Made by a program: the position numbers and the translations under genes
Assembly (NCBI GenBank): GCA_000165345.1
Contig: CM000431.1
Span: 576,001-640,000, forward strand
Length of the DNA: 64,000 bases
Direction: 5' to 3'
Notes under the pieces: model-generated
Database searches by the model: none
Told to the model about the DNA's origin: nothing
Seen by the model: only the letters and a program-made list of their open reading frames with translations
In this document: positions 6,001-36,625 of the stretch, one piece after another
Layout of the letters: each line of letters starts with the position of its first letter
How positions within the stretch are numbered: position 1 is the stretch's first letter

Positions 6001-9000
6001 CCAATAGCAGTGCTTCTCGGAGTTTCACTTCGCTCTGTTAAAAACGGAGTGATTTCTACTCATACTATTAAACATGTAATTCCAAATGAGCTGTTATGGA
6101 GAATTGACTGGGATGAAGTTATTGAAAGCATTACTAATTCTGAAATAGTGTCGCTTCCAACCAAAGTCAATTGCGATAACACAGAAAATGAGTCCTATCA
6201 AGGGATAAACGCAAATCTGGTTGAAAAAAGAAAAGTTTTATTACTTACTAACTCTTGCAATATTAGTAAAAAAGAATTGTATTCCGAATATTTTACTGCT
6301 GATATTGTATGTGAAGCATCAAAACTATCTTTAGCTGAAATAGAGGCAACAATATATGGGAGAGATGATCAAGAATTGCCACCTTCTCCATCAAATGAAG
6401 CAAAGTATGACTTAATTTGTCTCCATATTCCCAATTCAGATAAGAATAAAGCTATTGTTTCATTATTGCCAGTATTATATCTTTGCAAAATTCTAAGATC
6501 AATGTTCGAAAATAAGGAAAGATTAATTCCACGTGTTAGAATAATTACTGAAAACATATTCAATGTAGATGGAATGAATCTTGAATTTAGAACAAATTCA
6601 GGTGTTGCTCCTTTCATTAAGAGCGCTAGACAAGAACTCGAGTTATTCTCTGATCAATCTGTTTCATTAGGATTAATTGATATAGAGACTGCAGAAGACT
6701 TAAATAAAGCTATAATTCTTTCATTTGTGAAAGATATACTTTGTTTCAAAAAAAGAGAAGATATTACTTCTAACGGCACACTTACAGAATCGCAACGTTT
6801 ATTTTTAAATACCGAATATGAGCCAGAGCTTGTGCTAAAAAAGAAAATTAAAGGTAAAGAAGATAACTGTGAAGCTCATTACAGAATAATTACTCCAAAA
6901 CTAGTCAGCTTAAGAGGCGAAGCAGCGATTATTGGTTCTTGTAAGTTAAATTTGAGTTCTCGCGGAGCGATAAATAATTTAGAGTTGTTACCTTTATCTA
7001 ATGAAGAAAGAAAATGTCCATCTGCAAATACTGTTGAAATTAGAGTAAGGTCAATCGGACTTAACTTTAGAGACGTATTAAATGTTATGGGATTGTATCC
7101 CGGTGACCCTGGACCTCCCGGCGGTGATTGTTCTGGTACTGTTGTCGCTGTTGGTGAAGGCGTTAAGCATATTAAAGTTGGTGATAATGTATTTGGAATT
7201 GCTCCTGGATGCTTAAAAACTTATGTTACCACTGATTCAAATTTGTTATGCAAAATTCCAAAAGGATTTACCTTCGAACAAGCTGCTGCGTTACCAGTTG
7301 TTGCAACTACAGTTGAATATTCTCTTAAAGATATTGCGAATATTAAAAAAGGAGATATTGTTCTAGTTCATGCAGTTACTGGTGGCGTAGGATTAATGGT
7401 TGTTCAATATTGCAAAGCAATTGGTGCTAAAGTATACGGCACAGCTGGAAGCGAATCTAAAGTTGAATATGCACTTTCTAATGGTGTTGAGAGGGTAAGT
7501 AGCTCAAGAAATGCTGATAAATTTAAAGAGGATATGAAAGATTTAGAGGGAAAAGTTGATATTGTAATCAATTCATTGATCGAAGACTTTATTCCAAATT
7601 CTTTGAATTTATTGAAAAAAGGTGGTTGTTTTGTCGAATTGGGAAAAAGAGGAATATGGACAGAAGAAGAGATGAAAGAAAAGAGACCTGATATTAAGTA
7701 CAAATGTGTTGCTGTTGATGTAATGATGGAGGAAGATCCTTCTTGGTTTGGGGGAATGCTAACAAGAATAAAAAATTTGGTAGAAGAAGGAATAATCGAA
7801 TCATTACCATTGAAGGTGTTTGATATGAGAGGTTCAGATGAGAATGGAATAGATGCATTCAGATATATGCAAAGAGCGCAACATATAGGAAAGGTTATCA
7901 TCAAAATTCCAACTCCTTTCAAATATTTAGAATTGGATACGGAAAATCATAAGTTAAACAACGTTGGTTCTGAAAAAGAAGATAGACACAACAATGAATA
8001 TGGCATTCATGTGATTACTGGAGGATTAGGAGGAATTGGAAGGATTATTATCAAGTGGATGTTAGAAGAAGGAGTTAGAAAGATTGCAATTTTATCAAGA
8101 AGCGCTAATAATGATTCTTTAAGAGATATCCCAGAAATAAAGGATTATTTGAATACAGATATTATTCAAATAGAATGCATAAAATGTGATGTTTCGATAT
8201 TGTCACAGGTAGAGAGTGCATTTAGGGAGATTTTAGTTAAATTTGGAGAAACGAACCAAATACATGGAATATTCCATGCTGCAGGTATTCTGATGGATGG
8301 AGCAATTGCTTCTCAAACAATGGAAATGATGGAGTCAGTATATGCACCCAAGGTATATGGAGCATGGAATCTACATGAGTGTTGTGAGAAGTTTGACTTG
8401 AATAAAAATTTGAAGCACTTCGTGATGTTTTCTTCAGTTGCATCATTACTGGGTAATTTTGGTCAAACAAACTACTCTGCAGCGAATTCTTGTTTAGATT
8501 CATTGGTTGAATATAGAAGAAATAAAGGAATGTGCGGAACTAGTATACAATGGGGTCCCTGGATTGAACAAGGAATGGCAATGAATATAAAACAACATTT
8601 AGAGAAGGTTGGAATGCATGGAATATCCAATGAAATGGGTATAAGAGTGATTAATGACGTGATCTTATATCAAAACACAGATTTAGATAAGAACTCATTA
8701 GGGAAATACCCAGTAATCACTTGCCAATCATTTAATTGGAATGTATATATGCGTCAATTATATTATAACTCAAAATATCCATCATTCTTCAAAGATGTGG
8801 TTGCATCAATGTCTACTGGAGAAGTAAAGAATATAGGAATGGATTTCAGGGGAATGAGTAAAGAGGAAGTGTACTCGTATGTTAAAGACTCAGTGCATAA
8901 TATAGTAGAACAGATTATTGGAATACAATCGTCAACTCTTGACTTGGACACGCCATTTTCAGAACTTGGGATGGATTCTTTGTCGGCAATTGAGTTGAGG

Positions 9001-29783: not shown

Positions 29784-30349
29784 TGTTCAATTAACTTAAT
29801 TGACCATTAAAAATAGTCAAGCAATTATTTTTGAGCAAAATTTACCGTTGATCAAAATTTTATTTTGAATACAAAAATTATCTTATATATACTAGCTAAA
29901 TAATTTTGACTCATTAAGCCAGTTATAAAGAGAAATCAAATCTTGGTTTTCGGTATTTTGAATGGCGTTTTTATCATTAATTATATACTGGAGGAAGTTT
30001 TTTAATTGATAAGTAAGGCCTTTTATGGATTTAATAATTCTGATTTTTTTATCCATTATTTTCAATAGACTAGATATTCTTTCAATTTCATATGTAGCTA
30101 TTGCATTTCTCAGAGATAATTTCAAAACGTAAATCTTCAATGCGTTTATACCTGAAATATTGTCTAAAAATCAAAATAATTAGTGTATAAATTTATGGTA
30201 AAACGTACTGGGATTAGTTTCGGCCTCACAAAGGGATTTAATTGAAGAAATTAGTCCCTTCAGAATATTCCGTTTATAATGCATGCAGTTATCACGCATC
30301 TTATCTTATTCATCATAACTCAGATAAAAGGGAAACCATTGCGCGATGA

Positions 30350-30360
30350 GGGGGGGGGGG
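30350..30360. repeat. G11 homopolymer (C11 on the minus strand)
   Basis: gagggggggggggc seen directly. Very unusual in a ~30% GC region. It lies just 3' of the last confident exon of the ORC/Cdc6-like gene. Confidence 0.9.
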
Positions 30361-30404: not shown

Positions 30405-32759
30405 TTAAAATTTACAGTATCTACTAGCAATATCCAATATTTTTCTGTAGACTAAATCAATGAAGCAACTTTCTAGATTCGAGGGAATACCATTGTTAGA
30501 GTATTCAATTAGTAGCTTTAAAATAAGAAAACCTAAGTCATTTGCGATCCCCTTAGCAACTGACGGTGTGAATCTCTGTTCGATGTAAGACGCAACGTCC
30601 TCGATTAGCCTATCAATCCTATCTGGGGAAACTTTAATTGGCACCTTCTTCGAGAATCTAGCCAATAGAGGCCCCAAGTGAAAGTTTAGCATATTAACAA
30701 CTTCTCTTAAGTTCCATTCGCCGCAGCCTGGAAGAGACAAATGAATGAAGAATCTGTAGGGCTACACAAGTTATTTCAGCTAAAAGACATCGGTGGATTT
30801 AAATAACAGCTCAGACAAATGCCTCGATTGTAATCAACACTAGCCATATGGCTAATGCAATTGATACAAGATAACTGGCAAACCCTTCGATAAGCCCGCT
30901 ATTATATCAAATTCATGCTCGTCATCTGATTTATCATCATTACCAGATAAATCCACGCAAGAAACAACATACCTGAAACATTCTGGTGCAAACAATATTT
31001 TTACTTGTAGATGTGCCAAAAATCATTATTTCTGAATGCATCCATTTGTTCGAACGAGATATAATATCAAAAAAAAACATCAATGAAAGAAGCGTATTGT
31101 TTTCTTCTAGCAAATACTGATCTATATCTTCAATGACCAATATATATTTACGTTTTCTTGTACAAACATCAATAATTTCTTTCAAGTATCTTTCAAAAAA
31201 TCCAATAGTTGCGTTGAAAATGTCTGCAGTATGTACGTATTTAATACTATAGTTTAAAGAGTCGGCAATTGAAGAGACGAGAAAGCTCTTACCTAAACGG
31301 TGATAAATATTTGTTAAATTAAATACAGGCATCAAATTTAAGGCTCAAATTTTCAACATGAAGAATTAGTGACCTATCATATAGTTATTTTCTCATTTGC
31401 CTGACTAAAATAAAACTTACCACAACCCTTGTCACCGAAAACAATAATACCAGACGCTTCATTAAAAACTATAGGAAGTCGAAAGTTCGATATTTCTGAA
31501 TATGAAATACAGGGGAGCAAAAGATTCTTTATTTTGTGAATTACTTGGCCAAAGCCAGTCATTTGAATTAATCCATTTTTGCATGAACCGCTCTCTCTAT
31601 CACAGCTAGAATCACAAATTGTACAATTTGAATTACTGACTGATTTATTCAATCTCCTGATAACGAAGTTAAAATAATATAAAAATACATTAAAAAAGTC
31701 AGGTATTACACCATTGAGGACTATTGCAACAAATCTACCGCACGAAACAGTGTATGGAATATCATGCAGTTCTTCATTTAAAACGTCAGCGATGCGAACC
31801 AGGTCAATCTCATTTACAATGAATTTCAATTCTTCATTGGATAAAGCCATAATATATTTGGAGTGAATGCTAGAAATTTTTTCCATCAGACAATTCAGAG
31901 AAATTTCATTTATATCATATCTTTTATAAATTAAGAACCTTAATAAGGAAATTTTATCGATCTGGAGCGAGAAGTTTCTGAAATCTATTTCAAAAAATTC
32001 TCCATATCCATACTTAAATATATATCTTATATCCATAGTCTTTGACTGTAAAATCTTATTCGATGTGCCATAGTCATCTGGGTCTATATCCGAAATAAAA
32101 AATGAAACAATTGGAATATTTTTGTTATCCCAAATACGGATAAATTTAGAGATCAAATTAAGAATAACTATTTGTTTTGAAACATCACCATAGTAGTTAC
32201 TATTTGGTCCTGTGTAATATTTATTTGGATTTGCACTTCTAAAACAAACCAATATGGCAGGAGGGGAAAAAGGTCCACTGCATAATGAGTCTCTTAAGCG
32301 CACCCCTACTTTTGATATAGACGTTAATTTATTATTCAAATAATAAATCTTCTTGTCAAAACAATCAGTAGTTCTCGTATCAATAAAATATTCATCAATT
32401 GATATATTGAAAGTCACGGGATTAAAGGATTTTGAGTTTTCAAAGTAACAAATCTTTGAGAAGCTAGATAACAATTCTCTTGCAAAGTATCTCTTTCCAG
32501 ATCCACTATTACCTATTAGAATCAAAACTTTCGGAAGTCTGTCAATGAAAAGGTTAATACCCACTTCAGTCGTGTCAATATCACAAAAATTAGTCTCATA
32601 TCTTTTTAGCAACAATAGATAGAATATCGACCCAATTTTTTCAAAGAAATCATCAAGCAATGGGCCGCCTACAAATGATTCATCCAGTTCCAATCTCCAT
32701 TTAAAAAGAAAAAAGGAGATCCATCTCAGAGGAATCTCGTCGTACTTGTCCCAATACAT
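30405..32759 (-). CDS. Divergent ORC1/Cdc6-like AAA+ ATPase with two tandem P-loop modules; at least 3 exons (32759..31421, 31292..30973, 30761..30405), 3' end uncertain
   Basis: Walker A GNSGSGKR in module 1. In module 2 Walker A is GDKGCG|KS, split by a 128-nt GTAAGT..TTTAG intron, and Walker B is YILVIEDID. ORC/Cdc6-type wording LLSLMFFFDIISRSNKWMHSEIMIFGTSTSKN and CTRMFQ|PYRFFIHL is split by a 211-nt GTATGT..TAG intron (compare ORC1 LGLTRMCFQPYTY). Intron positions are supported by restored motif continuity. Further 3' exons are possible (see ORF 29892..30140). Confidence 0.5.
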
Positions 32760-32979: not shown

Positions 32980-33373
32980 TTAATAATGACTTTTATTATT
33001 GAAAAACAGCACTGTTAAATATCTATTTAATGTTAACCTCTCAAATTAGATTTAAATTAACATACCTTCCAGAAACTTGAAAACCAGAAAGCTGTTTCAG
33101 CGCACTTTTTGCATCCTCAATCTCATCATATACTACAAATGCTGTGCCCTTTGTATCTTCACCTACACCTCTATTTCAGACTCTTCATGAACAAGAAATT
33201 TTGTTAGCCTTACCTTCTTATTTGTCTAATTGTTCCATGTCTCCCAAAAATGTCGTAGAGATCGGTAGAAGAGATATCATATGGAAGTTGCCTAAGGTAA
33301 ATAATAGATGAATTTAAAACAATGCATTTTACATTTCGTACCTTACATATAGAATTCGGCTATTATTAGACAT
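32980..33373 (-). CDS. SF3B6: Splicing factor 3B subunit 6 (SF3b14a/p14) RRM protein, 4 exons (33373..33342, 33291..33214, 33170..33066, 33022..32980); introns 50, 43, 43 nt
   Basis: Absent from the ORF track. Spliced product [85 protein letters not shown] aligns along its length with human SF3B6 ([76 protein letters not shown]). Donors AG|GTACGA, AG|GTAAGG, AG|GTATGT; acceptors ..CCTTAG, ..GAAATAG, ..TAAATAG. Confidence 0.8.
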
Positions 33374-33631: not shown

Positions 33632-36625
33632 ATGAGTGGGTTAGCCAGCTCTCCCTCTATTGGGAAGACAATACTATTTGAGAAGAATAACGATTGGGGG
33701 CTTAATTTTGATTTGGGCGAGCTCGAAATATATGAAAATCAGGACTTAAAAACTAGACTAAAGGAATTAATTTCGCCATTCGAAAACACATTTTCTTCTG
33801 TATCTACTCTAGAATACTTGCATCCATTTACATTGAAGTTCCGAAGCGAGATTTTGGAAAAGAAATTTGAAAAAAAATTTAGAAAAAGAACAGAAATTGG
33901 TATTTTTTGGATTGGATTGCTAACATTATTTTTAATAATCTTGGATATCTTATTAGAAGTTTACAATCAAAAAGTAAATGAAGTTTCTAATAGTTCAGTA
34001 ACTGCTTATTTTATAATTTGTGGTGTAGTTGCAACATGCTCATTATTTCTAATCATATCATTTTTCGTCAATTTCTTAAATAAACATTTGGAAGTTATAT
34101 TTACATCAACTACAATAATAACAACAATACTTAATATTACAGCAGGAAATTTATTACTAGATGTCTCACTTTCCCCTAATAATAACTACGATCCTGCTGT
34201 CCAGAATTCCAGATCACTTATTGTAATCACAATTTGCTCGATTCTGCATTTTATGTTACCAATTTCTTTTATGAGTATATTAATTTATTCAATAACGAGT
34301 ATCTCATTCTATATTATATTGGTCCCTTCTATGCTGATGCCTATTCCTAACGAAACTCAATACGTATCCACAACAATTTATCTTTTTGTGTTCTGTTTTG
34401 TATGTATTTTGGCTAAAAGAGTTAACGTGAGCTCTTCTAGAAGAGACTTTTTTAACATTAATTTAGTTAAAGCAGAAATGCAAATATTGGAGAATTCTAT
34501 GAATCAAACACCTAAATCTACAATGATCGAAGGAACATTAGCTAACATCAATAAGGTTCAACTATTTCTTCGCTATTTAAATACTTCCTGCACAAAGGGA
34601 ATAAATCGTAAAATGTTACATGACGCAATGGTAGACCTGACTTCTGCTCAAGTCACTTTATGTAGGTCAGATGATATTTATGCAGTTGATCCAGTTGCGA
34701 TTTTCCTACCGCAGTCACTTCAGTCAAATGTGCCGCAAACCCCTAGACAATCTAAGGTTAGAATAATAGGTAGTGGAGATGTAACTCCAAAAGAAAATTG
34801 CTCTCCAACTGCTTCTCAAAAGATAAAACAAGAGTTGGGTATATCTTATGATGTTAGAATTCCTATATCTCCTAATTCTCCAAAGTCAATGGGGCAGTTT
34901 TTATCTCCAAAGTCGCACGAGAACAAGTCAAGTTATATAAGCGTTGATTCCATATCAGCCAGAAGGAATACAGAATCAAGGGCTACTGTTACATCGATTC
35001 CTGGCCCTTCTCGTCGAAGACTCTCAATGATGATTGCTACTGCAGGAGAGAACTCTTCAACACTTATTGATCCGTCCGTTGAAAAGGTGAGAGAGTATAT
35101 TACTGCAGAATTTACTAAATCGTCTGCATCTAGAAGAGAGGTTTTATATGCTTCTAAAGTTTTTGATGGACCGGCCGCAAACCCAAGCAATACTAATGAA
35201 AAGATCAAGACTACATCTCAAAATTTGGATACAAATCATATAGTGGAAAGTATGATTTCCCGTCAAGGACCCTTAGATGAACCTGCAGTTGGTGGAGATA
35301 TTGAAGATAATTATAGACATCTTTTAAAGAATAAGCGTAAGATAGCTCACTTCGCAACTCATCTAGCTTCAAAACTCATTTCTATTAAAGATCCTTCTGG
35401 AACAATCTCATTATTAAGTCAATCATATTTTAATGAAACTAATCCACATAATTTTACGCTACCTGAACTTCCCAAAGGTGTTGGTACAGAACTTCATTCT
35501 GATTTAGATAGGGCATTGCAACTTATGAATAACCAGTATTCTTCTAATTGGGATTTGGACATGTGGAGGCTAAACGAATTAACAAAAGGTAATTGCCTTT
35601 CAGTGGCAGGACTATATATGCTACACTTGATTGCATTAGAAGAAAAAAACCAGGAATCTGGCTTTGATTCATCTAACTTGCCTAGGGGAATTACTACAGC
35701 ATATTCTTCTTCAATTACTGCTCCTTCGAAGCTAATTGGCAATATATCCAAATTCAATATATTTTTTCGAGAATTAAATATTAGATACCTCAACAATAAA
35801 TACCATAACGAATTACACGGCACTAACGTATGCCATCTTGCAATTTGCCTATCAAGAGCGACTGGATTATGGAGCCATTTAGACACTGTAGAGAGGCTTG
35901 CCTCAGTTATTGCATCTCTTGGGCATGATGTAGGCCATATTGGTAGAACAAGCAATTTTCTTGTAAATTCAAGACATATGCTTGCAATTAATTATAATGA
36001 TCGATCTGTCCTTGAAATGTTCCATGCATCCCTAACGTTTCGGATAATCTACTATTATGGAGGCGGAGCTGCTGATTTTTTGCAAAGTTGGGACGCAGAA
36101 CTCCACAAAGAATTTAGAAGAATAGTTATTGAATTAATATTAGAGACAGATATGCATAGGCATTTTGAATGCGTTTCTAGGTTTAGAGTGAGAAGGCAAG
36201 CAGTTGATTGGGACCCATACGGAGATGCTCAAGATAGGCTAATGCTTGCTAGGACATGTTTAAAAGCTGCAGATATCGGACATGGAGCATTGAAATGGAA
36301 TCAACACTATAAGTGGTGCAGATCTGTTGTAGAAGAATTTTTCCTACAAGGAGATGAGGAGAAAGCATTATCGCTGCCCATTTCTCCAATTTGTGATAGG
36401 GAATCTACAGATGTACCAAAGTCGCAGGTTGGATTTTTAAATTTTGTTTGTCTTCCATTGTTCCAAGAATTATGCTATGTAGATGTGGAGGGTGATGTGA
36501 GAAGATGTATTGATCGAATTTTGGAAAATATTAATAACTGGGAAGACATAGCTGAGGCAGGCATTCAGTGGGATAGTGAAGATGCATTAACATTTGTTTC
36601 AGATGAAAAAGCTGATTTACAATAG
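33632..36625 (+). CDS. 3',5'-cyclic nucleotide phosphodiesterase with an N-terminal multi-pass transmembrane region (apicomplexan-type PDE)
   Basis: PDEase signature YHNELHGTNV...LGHDVGHIGRTSNFLVNS (HD..H......N.F motif) in the C-terminal half. Several hydrophobic helices between residues ~90 and 250. Confidence 0.8.
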   Translation: MSGLASSPSIGKTILFEKNNDWGLNFDLGELEIYENQDLKTRLKELISPFENTFSSVSTLEYLHPFTLKFRSEILEKKFEKKFRKRTEIGIFWIGLLTLFLIILDILLEVYNQKVNEVSNSSVTAYFIICGVVATCSLFLIISFFVNFLNKHLEVIFTSTTIITTILNITAGNLLLDVSLSPNNNYDPAVQNSRSLIVITICSILHFMLPISFMSILIYSITSISFYIILVPSMLMPIPNETQYVSTTIYLFVFCFVCILAKRVNVSSSRRDFFNINLVKAEMQILENSMNQTPKSTMIEGTLANINKVQLFLRYLNTSCTKGINRKMLHDAMVDLTSAQVTLCRSDDIYAVDPVAIFLPQSLQSNVPQTPRQSKVRIIGSGDVTPKENCSPTASQKIKQELGISYDVRIPISPNSPKSMGQFLSPKSHENKSSYISVDSISARRNTESRATVTSIPGPSRRRLSMMIATAGENSSTLIDPSVEKVREYITAEFTKSSASRREVLYASKVFDGPAANPSNTNEKIKTTSQNLDTNHIVESMISRQGPLDEPAVGGDIEDNYRHLLKNKRKIAHFATHLASKLISIKDPSGTISLLSQSYFNETNPHNFTLPELPKGVGTELHSDLDRALQLMNNQYSSNWDLDMWRLNELTKGNCLSVAGLYMLHLIALEEKNQESGFDSSNLPRGITTAYSSSITAPSKLIGNISKFNIFFRELNIRYLNNKYHNELHGTNVCHLAICLSRATGLWSHLDTVERLASVIASLGHDVGHIGRTSNFLVNSRHMLAINYNDRSVLEMFHASLTFRIIYYYGGGAADFLQSWDAELHKEFRRIVIELILETDMHRHFECVSRFRVRRQAVDWDPYGDAQDRLMLARTCLKAADIGHGALKWNQHYKWCRSVVEEFFLQGDEEKALSLPISPICDRESTDVPKSQVGFLNFVCLPLFQELCYVDVEGDVRRCIDRILENINNWEDIAEAGIQWDSEDALTFVSDEKADLQ

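Follow-up and report, generated by a model that had tools for sequence, protein, structure and literature searches.

Locus and gene model

The gene considered here, cgd3_2300 of Cryptosporidium parvum, lies on the minus strand at positions 30405-32759 of a 64,000-nucleotide stretch of contig CM000431.1 (assembly GCA_000165345.1, positions 576,001 to 640,000 of the forward strand). This whole stretch, AT-rich with a G+C content of about 32%, is called the window, and coordinates are counted from its first letter. A preliminary description made from the letters alone had seen in the gene a fast-evolving protein with two tandem AAA+ modules resembling the replication initiators ORC1/Cdc6 (ORC, origin recognition complex). 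The two modules are retained in the present analysis and the family is not.

The minus strand of the interval opens with the 460-codon open reading frame (ORF) that had been described, at 31377..32759, followed by two shorter ones. Joined through canonical splice sites, exons 32759..31421, 31292..30973 and 30761..30405 give a product of 671 amino acids (aa) that is identical at 671/671 residues to the C. parvum protein QOY42580 (CPATCC_001228), annotated as an 'AAA-type ATPase core domain containing protein'. Exactly the same 2355-bp gene is found in the public CP044420.1 annotation, at about 609450-611804 by converted locus coordinates; the old Iowa II model, XP_626797, consists of exon 1 alone, and the name Cgd3_2300 is borne by a UniRef member of the same cluster. 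Since the spliced product and the annotated gene coincide, the exon structure proposed earlier is correct, and the single spliced gene it implied had already been annotated. Its parts are as follows.

31421..32759, minus strand: exon 1, aa 1-446 plus 1 nucleotide (nt); short N-terminal helices, module 1 (D1), linker and the start of module 2 (D2) as far as GDKGCG
31293..31420, minus strand: intron 1, 128 nt, GTAAGT..TTTAG, phase 1, within the Walker A glycine codon of D2
30973..31292, minus strand: exon 2, aa 447-553; remainder of Walker A, pore-loop position, Walker B and sensor 1, to ..TRMFQ
30762..30972, minus strand: intron 2, 211 nt, GTATGT..TGTAG, phase 0, at the MFQ/PYRFF boundary
30405..30761, minus strand: exon 3, aa 554-671 plus stop; the arginine of PYRFF, beta5 and the four-helix lid of D2
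31770..32564, minus strand: module 1, a degenerate D1 AAA+ domain with lid, aa 66-330
30408..31562, minus strand: module 2, the classical AAA domain D2 with lid, aa 400-671, a span that takes in both introns

The introns do cut two protein motifs, as had been noticed: intron 1 splits the Walker A codon of D2 and intron 2 splits ..MFQ/PYRFF.. (a stroke marks the splice junction in this and other motifs). Both positions are matched in C. muris, and both introns are present in C. hominis, C. meleagridis, C. canis, C. ubiquitum, C. felis, C. xiaoi and C. muris. A model of two separate genes was rejected, because in every species neither Walker A nor the second region of homology is whole until the exons are joined. 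The C-terminus ..RYCKF* is also conserved in other species, with RYCKF, RNCEL, KCCKF, RYCAL and RYCSN as the C-termini conserved across five further species.

Several deposited orthologue models are wrong. In C. ubiquitum the P-loop of D1 has been spliced out, so that the annotated deletion of Walker A is an artefact (the genome encodes GSIGSGKK). The C. felis model lacks exon 3, which was located by hand as PYRLL...RYCSN*; exon 3 is shortened in the models of chipmunk genotype I and C. ubiquitum, and intron 1 is translated through in those of C. xiaoi and C. bovis.

The two AAA modules

The classical character of the protein is read from D2. Pfam family PF00004 (AAA) matches aa 438-561 with an E-value of 2.3e-11 and 44.7 bits against a cut-off of 21.2, and it is also matched by the orthologues, with 62.3 bits in C. 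muris and 42.9, 30.5 and 22.1 bits in others. Searches of the PDB sequences, run with the single sequence and with the family profile, gave the same best matches, which for the C. parvum protein are Rix7, NVL, Afg2/Drg1, VAT, SPATA5, Cdc48/p97, Pex1, Msp1 and Vps4. The scores of D2 to Rix7, NVL, Afg2, VAT and p97 are all similar. D2 of the less derived C. muris orthologue aligns with VAT from the helix before Walker A through the lid (E 2e-19), with ..IDPYVFQPYRFSKLLKLP.. opposite ..MDPALLRAGRFDKLIYIP... When the D2 profile was compared by hhalign with a profile of classical AAA domains (252 domains drawn from hidden Markov model (HMM) search matches), the result was 99.9% (2.5e-31).

In the whole-domain alignments to VAT, Afg2 and p97, FQPYRF falls opposite LRPGRF of VAT, and the second region of homology stays in register, ..IFGTSTS..MFQPYRF.. 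opposite ..VIGATNRP..LLRPGRF... It follows that CTRMFQ/PYRFF closes the second region of homology of a classical domain. The motifs once taken as specific to ORC/Cdc6 are thus ordinary alpha3/beta4 and second-region elements of classical AAA proteins. The motifs of the two modules are located as follows.

32490..32513, minus strand: Walker A of D1, GNSGSGKR, aa 83-90, with Arg for Ser/Thr
32229..32264, minus strand: beta3 of D1 at the Walker B position, PPAILVCFRSAN, acidic pair absent
31285..31436, minus strand: Walker A of D2, GDKGCG/KS, aa 442-449, split by intron 1, conserved in every species
31192..31218, minus strand: pore-loop-1 position of D2, FNATIGFFE, with Thr where classical AAA unfoldases carry an aromatic residue
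31120..31146, minus strand: Walker B of D2, YILVIEDID, acidic pair E-D
30747..30987, minus strand: second region of homology of D2, TRMFQ/PYRFF, aa 549-558, split by intron 2

Both P-loops are present as first described, and the state of each motif was read across 13 sequences. Walker A of D2 follows GxxGxGK(S/T), as GDKGCGKS throughout and GDKGSGKT in C. muris. The hhhhDE form of Walker B is found in D2 of none of these sequences; the motif reads hhhhE-D throughout, with E-E in C. xiaoi and C. bovis, and never D-E. The pore-loop-1 position is occupied by A-T-I-G, or by K-R/K-L-G in C. muris and C. andersoni, and an aromatic-hydrophobic-Gly loop is absent, no species having an aromatic residue at the aligned position. 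Every species has Gln at the first arginine finger, the second Arg is retained throughout the genus, and sensor 1 is Thr or Ser (Asn in classical domains). Judged by its sequence, D2 is a true classical AAA domain whose Walker A is intact, and three deviations in it are fixed genus-wide as read from these alignments: a Walker B that is not D-E, the lack of an aromatic pore-loop-1 residue, and Gln for the first arginine finger.

For D1, HMMER searches of the module alone with Pfam and NCBIfam gave a P-loop and nothing beyond it, at the level of P-loop noise. A profile built from 12 Cryptosporidium sequences aligned by hhalign to the classical AAA profile at 95.1% (P 3.3e-8) over 203 columns, from beta1 and the P-loop to the lid; in this alignment LSNEELKFIVNEIDL is paired with GFSGADI..L..EA. 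The real score was 59.0, compared with 13.5 ± 2.4 (maximum 20.8) for column-shuffled controls. By the same method the similarity between module 1 and module 2 of the family is weak (33%, P 4.6e-4) and extends from the P-loop to alpha2 only. An AlphaFold2 (AF2) model of D1 alone, from a 10-sequence alignment, reached a predicted local distance difference test score (pLDDT) of 71.5 and a predicted template modelling score (pTM) of 0.69; its elements follow the order b1-a1-b2-(short helix)-a2-b3-a3-b4-a4-b5, then a helical lid. A full-length model was used only for the pattern of its Foldseek matches, in which tandem AAA proteins were matched over 600-719 columns.

Walker A of D1 varies within the genus. 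It is canonical in C. muris (GYKGSGKS), reads GPSGFGKK in C. felis and GSIGSGKK in the C. ubiquitum genome, and has been lost in C. xiaoi and C. bovis. D1 is an AAA+ fold with a lid, with a weakened Walker A (GKR) and without the Walker B acidic pair. It is preceded by about 65 residues, predicted helical, before the beta1 strand; no match to CDC48_N or a related Pfam domain was found in this N-terminal part, and since these residues run straight into D1 there is no N domain of the Cdc48/NSF type.

Two tandem AAA+ modules are thus confirmed, D2 by PF00004, D1 by hhalign and the AF2 fold, and the pair by the Foldseek matches of the full-length model. With a probability of roughly three in four, cgd3_2300 is a Cryptosporidium-restricted, rapidly evolving type II (tandem D1-D2) classical AAA ATPase and not an ORC protein. 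The likeness to Cdc48/p97/VAT, Rix7/NVL and Afg2/Drg1/SPATA5 lies in the tandem D1-D2 modules with a helical lid on each, in the whole-domain alignment of D2, and in the 600-719 columns just mentioned. In contrast to that group, cgd3_2300 lacks an N-terminal substrate or adaptor domain, its D1 has no Walker B acidic residues, its D2 combines an E-D Walker B and a Gln first finger with the absence of an aromatic pore loop, and it is fast-evolving and confined to one genus. The tandem arrangement had been called unusual because one such module is normal for ORC/Cdc6 proteins; with the family assignment wrong, that claim is wrong as well. In the classical clade (Cdc48, NSF, Pex1/6, Rix7, Afg2, Yta7) a D1-D2 pair is standard.

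An initiator, either a fused or duplicated protein of ORC1/Cdc6 type or a diverged ORC subunit, would consist of two AAA+ modules of the initiator clade. P-loops and AAA+ folds with helical lids in both modules are what such a protein would show too, and CTRMFQPYRFF has a superficial likeness to the ORC1 box. When the D1 model was searched with Foldseek, ORC5 and ORC4 ranked first (E 2.7e-4 to 1e-3, TM score 0.3-0.46), which speaks for the initiator and counts against a classical assignment. These E-values are weak and do not discriminate (ORC 3e-4, Thorase 7e-4, Trip13 2e-3), nor do they separate ORC from RFC and p97. The profile searches that had been proposed with AAA, Cdc6_C and ORC models matched AAA on module 2 and no ORC/Cdc6 Pfam family on the spliced product at E<=10, Cdc6_C included. 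The NCBIfam orc1/cdc6 model TIGR02928 reached 12.6 bits (E 0.044; cut-off 181.3), over the P-loop only, and ORC or Cdc6 chains are absent from the 158-221 PDB sequence matches.

Structure prediction, also proposed earlier, bore out the AAA+ core with lid for D1 and not the winged helix expected with it. In the predicted models the D1 lid is followed only by a hairpin and a hydrophobic helix before D2, and the protein ends after the four-helix D2 lid (aa 571-670); the predicted structure there is all-helical, and a winged-helix domain is absent after either lid. Against ORC1/Cdc6, cgd3_2300 thus has no profile match, no winged helix and two modules instead of one; module 2 passes PF00004, its FQPYRF aligns to LRPGRF, and the resemblance of ..TRMFQPY.. 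to the ORC1 box is due to chance. The initiator reading is already largely refuted, and what is left of it is very improbable.

How a classical type II protein with these deviations might work is suggested by its relatives. By analogy with Pex1/Pex6 or NSF, the D1 ring would be structural or nucleotide-binding only, and the D2 ring would bind ATP and hydrolyse it slowly at best; processive threading seems unlikely by the same comparison. The protein would form a ring, either by itself or with another AAA protein whose weakly active partner it would be, and would use ATP to remodel or assemble a client specific to the lineage; it would not be a processive threading unfoldase and would have no role in origin recognition. 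Pex1/Pex6 and NSF likewise pair one degenerate ring, at most nucleotide-binding, with a ring that has a functional Walker A, and Pex6 and Pex1 are among the structural matches to the cgd3_2300 model. They differ in having large N domains and an active ring with canonical Walker B, arginine fingers and pore loops, and no orthology of cgd3_2300 to Pex1/Pex6 or NSF was detected at the sequence level in the profile search. Cryptosporidium is not known to have peroxisomes. The 'inactive' AAA modules of FtsHi/Ycf2 are a different case, a chloroplast import motor with a single AAA module and a protease-like domain and no sequence relationship to cgd3_2300.

Besides the Foldseek ranking of D1, several points weigh against the classical type II reading. 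A search of the PDB sequences with the module-1 profile HMM gave nothing meaningful. Without the P-loop the hhalign score of D1 falls to 20.8 (P 0.026), and the register is kept while significance is lost; this collapse means that the P-loop provides most of the D1 sequence signal. The AF2 model of the whole protein is of poor quality (pLDDT 46). Oligomeric state and ATPase activity are presumed from the behaviour of the family, the E-D Walker B may still support hydrolysis, and 'weak ATPase' is a guess. A literature search for cgd3_2300 found no paper, and no experiment, expression or localisation data.

Distribution, rate of evolution and intronic snoRNA candidates

The family has been detected only in Cryptosporidium. 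A word-indexed search returned proteins of this genus and no others; C. felis, C. xiaoi/bovis and C. muris/andersoni joined the family through an HMM search of 1.84 billion representatives. In the latter search all matches to other organisms (E >= 3e-16) cover D2 only, the names of these generic matches give no clue to orthology, and a full-length relative outside the genus was not found among the 1.84 billion. The gene order phosphodiesterase (PDE) - RNA recognition motif (RRM) gene - AAA - (small gene) - 55x-aa gene is kept in 8/8 Cryptosporidium species examined.

The rapid evolution claimed for the protein is borne out. Amino acid identity is 94.3% to C. hominis and 82.4% to C. meleagridis. 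Nonsynonymous (dN) and synonymous (dS) divergence, by the method of Nei and Gojobori, compare with those of the PDE neighbour as follows.

C. parvum - C. hominis: AAA dN 0.025, dS 0.100, dN/dS 0.25; PDE dN 0.004, dN/dS 0.07
C. parvum - C. meleagridis: AAA dN 0.085, dS 0.30, dN/dS 0.28; PDE dN 0.013, dN/dS 0.07

The dN of the AAA gene is about six times that of the neighbour. Its dN/dS of 0.25-0.28 is equal in D1 and D2, and many invariant residues are scattered along the whole protein. Such fast but constrained evolution argues that cgd3_2300 is not a pseudogene, and the ratios indicate that it is under purifying selection. The dS of the AAA exons is itself about twice that of neighbouring genes (0.10 and 0.04-0.06 with C. 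hominis; 0.30 and 0.18-0.19 with C. meleagridis), and the synonymous divergence of these exons is also higher than the divergence seen in the introns of the gene itself.

Intron 1 is, unexpectedly, better conserved than the exons around it, with identities of 99.2% (C. hominis) and 94.5% (C. meleagridis) where exon 1 has 95.8% and 88.5%. The conservation of intron 2 is about that of the exons and far above that of intergenic spacers. A scan of the window at the Rfam gathering level gave no match. A permissive scan found matches to C/D-box small nucleolar RNAs (snoRNAs) on the sense strand within both introns, in C. parvum and in C. muris.

30808..30943, minus strand: C/D-box snoRNA candidate in intron 2, U15/snR13-like, sub-threshold in Rfam, conserved in 7 species
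31325..31404, minus strand: C/D-box-like snoRNA candidate in intron 1, weak Rfam matches, covarying terminal stem

The intron-2 candidate, with a C. muris counterpart at 6957-7124 of locus L005, has the C box AUGAUGA, a guide GAUGACGAG followed by AUGA (D') and a guide GAGGCAUUUGU followed by CUGA (D). The C box, both antisense elements and the D box are found in 7 Cryptosporidium species, C. muris and C. xiaoi among them, and in C. parvum the element is enclosed by an outer stem GUGGAUUUA/UAAAUCCAC. The target in the large-subunit (LSU) rRNA was sought with an exact-match scan and then with Rfam LSU_rRNA_eukarya matches containing the site. The guides form 11 and 9-10 Watson-Crick pairs with LSU rRNA, being complementary to CAAAUGCCUCGUCAUC, and the 16-mer complementary to both of them, CAAATGCCTCGTCATC, is present in eukaryotic LSU rRNA genes. 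In yeast, snR13 and snR75 guide methylation at this site. Both antisense elements are identical to the conserved elements in the consensus of SNORD15 (U15)/snR13 (GAUGACGAGU.UGA ... GAGGCAUUUGUCUGA) in C. parvum and C. muris, and the order of the boxes matches it; the combined 16-nt target in eukaryotic LSU rRNA is a further point of likeness. The candidate differs from that family in an unrelated central region, in a D' box that reads AUGA, and in Rfam scores below the gathering thresholds (SNORD15 22-25 bits, threshold 75; TtnuCD10 34, threshold 85).

The intron-1 candidate (C. muris counterpart at 6488-6572 of the same locus) has a terminal stem that covaries between species, CAGGCA/UGCCUG compared with CAAGCA/UGCUUG. 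Its 16-nt core AACUAUAUGAUAGGUC is invariant in 7 intestinal species and different in C. muris. The boxes are degenerate in C. parvum (C box AUGAGA, D box UUGA) and canonical in C. muris and C. xiaoi. Its best complementarity to LSU rRNA, 10 pairs of which 8 are Watson-Crick, is hardly above the small-subunit (SSU) background.

A snoRNA in each intron would provide a reason for the persistence of two ancient introns, and their placement inside protein motifs would then be incidental. Li et al. 2022 (PMC9465071) reported 23 intronic noncoding RNAs in C. parvum, including 4 snoRNAs, and suggested as a general idea that intronic noncoding RNAs help introns to be retained.

The same observations could be turned around. 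In that case the ORF would be decaying or without function, and the locus would owe its retention mainly to the two intronic snoRNAs that its transcript hosts. Introns better conserved than exons, degenerate catalytic motifs and fast protein divergence would fit such a remnant. A dN/dS of 0.25-0.28 in both modules is well short of the value near 1 that it would predict, and the full-length ORF, the splice phases and Walker A of D2 are intact in every species back to C. muris, with the many invariant residues across the protein; a functionless ORF is accordingly quite improbable.

The snoRNA candidates have also a thematic fit with host genes of ribosome biogenesis, one of them having LSU-complementary guides, and this touches on two further explanations. 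In one, cgd3_2300 would be a highly diverged orthologue of a ribosome-biogenesis type II AAA protein, Rix7/NVL or Afg2/Drg1/SPATA5, which would strip assembly factors from pre-60S particles. Rix7, NVL and Afg2 are the top PDB sequence matches of the C. parvum protein, and depositors have labelled the C. felis orthologue 'Spermatogenesis-associated protein 5'. The E-values do not discriminate between subfamilies, though, and D2 of C. muris is closest to archaeal VAT. Rix7 and Afg2 enzymes have an N domain, a D-E Walker B, arginine fingers, an aromatic pore loop and slow evolution, all of which are missing or altered here, where dN is about six times that of the neighbouring gene. C. parvum probably has, in addition, a distinct protein annotated as 'nuclear VCP-like'. 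Orthology to these enzymes is on balance unlikely.

In the other, similarly doubtful, explanation a rewired active ring (E-D Walker B, Gln for the trans-acting arginine finger, no aromatic pore loop) would make the protein a non-threading switch driven by ATP, or else give it the weakly active place in a hetero-hexamer with a canonical AAA protein. Pex6 with Pex1 and SPATA5L1 with SPATA5 would be precedents for the partner. A role in ribosome biogenesis might follow; it is suggested because the gene hosts the two candidate C/D snoRNAs, including the one with LSU-complementary guides.

Neighbouring genes and significance

The genes that adjoin the classical type II AAA gene, and the spacer downstream of it, are as follows.

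29892..30299, minus strand: separate, annotated 120-aa gene of two exons, 30299..30209 and 30163..29892, with a 45-nt intron
30350..30360: homopolymer tract, G11 on the plus strand and C11 on the gene strand, in the spacer of 105 nt that separates the AAA stop from the next ATG
about 32980-33373, minus strand: small RRM gene with an intron, SF3B14/p14-like, annotated in C. parvum at 85 aa; directly upstream
33632-36625, plus strand: 997-aa phosphodiesterase (PF00233), 99.1% aa-identical to C. hominis

The 3' end of the AAA gene had been left open, with a possible further exon at 29892-30140. That segment belongs to the separately annotated 120-aa gene, which has its own strongly conserved ATG exon, and the AAA stop is conserved. 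In the C. meleagridis record the 120-aa ORF and the upstream RRM gene are fused to the AAA protein. A C-terminus spliced to the downstream ORF in this manner was rejected, because the in-frame stop ..TASKHFKF* is kept in the C. meleagridis DNA; the C-terminus conserved in other species and the ATG exon of the downstream gene also speak against it. Fusions of the RRM gene with the AAA protein occur in the models deposited for C. meleagridis, chipmunk genotype I, C. ubiquitum and one C. hominis assembly.

The 120-aa protein, for which no Pfam or PDB match was found, is 97.5% aa-identical to that of C. hominis, its large exon is 100% identical to that of C. meleagridis, and the gene is far more conserved than the adjoining AAA gene. 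In C. muris, about 1.9 kb without a called gene (locus L005, 7536-9419) separates the AAA gene from the small downstream gene, compared with the 105-nt spacer of C. parvum. The G11 tract reported at 30350-30360 is there, and it lies in this intergenic spacer and not inside a gene. The tract is conserved between species and variable in length, with C11 in C. parvum and C8 in C. hominis and C. meleagridis. It lies about 50 nt upstream of the ATG of the 120-aa gene and may be a promoter element.

By gene order and length, the phosphodiesterase of the window is cgd3_2320, or CpPDE1. This enzyme is a genetically validated target of pyrazolopyrimidine anticryptosporidials (PMC11436873).

The gene itself was already known as an annotated, uncharacterised one, and it is a genus-specific, divergent type II AAA protein. 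A false lead is removed with this assignment, there being no tandem ORC/Cdc6 initiator at the locus. The annotation can be upgraded from the one AAA domain seen by Pfam to a two-module, Cdc48-like architecture with genus-wide deviations in its catalytic sites, and errors in the gene models of several Cryptosporidium species (the fusions to the RRM and 120-aa genes, the omission of a P-loop, an intron translated through and an incomplete exon 3) are corrected. The candidate snoRNAs in both introns offer a concrete example of how introns at fixed positions could persist in an intron-poor genome. Being restricted to the genus and under purifying selection, the AAA protein is a reasonable candidate for parasite-specific biology. 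Should the non-threading switch or partner be the true reading, it would be a parasite-specific, possibly essential remodelling factor.

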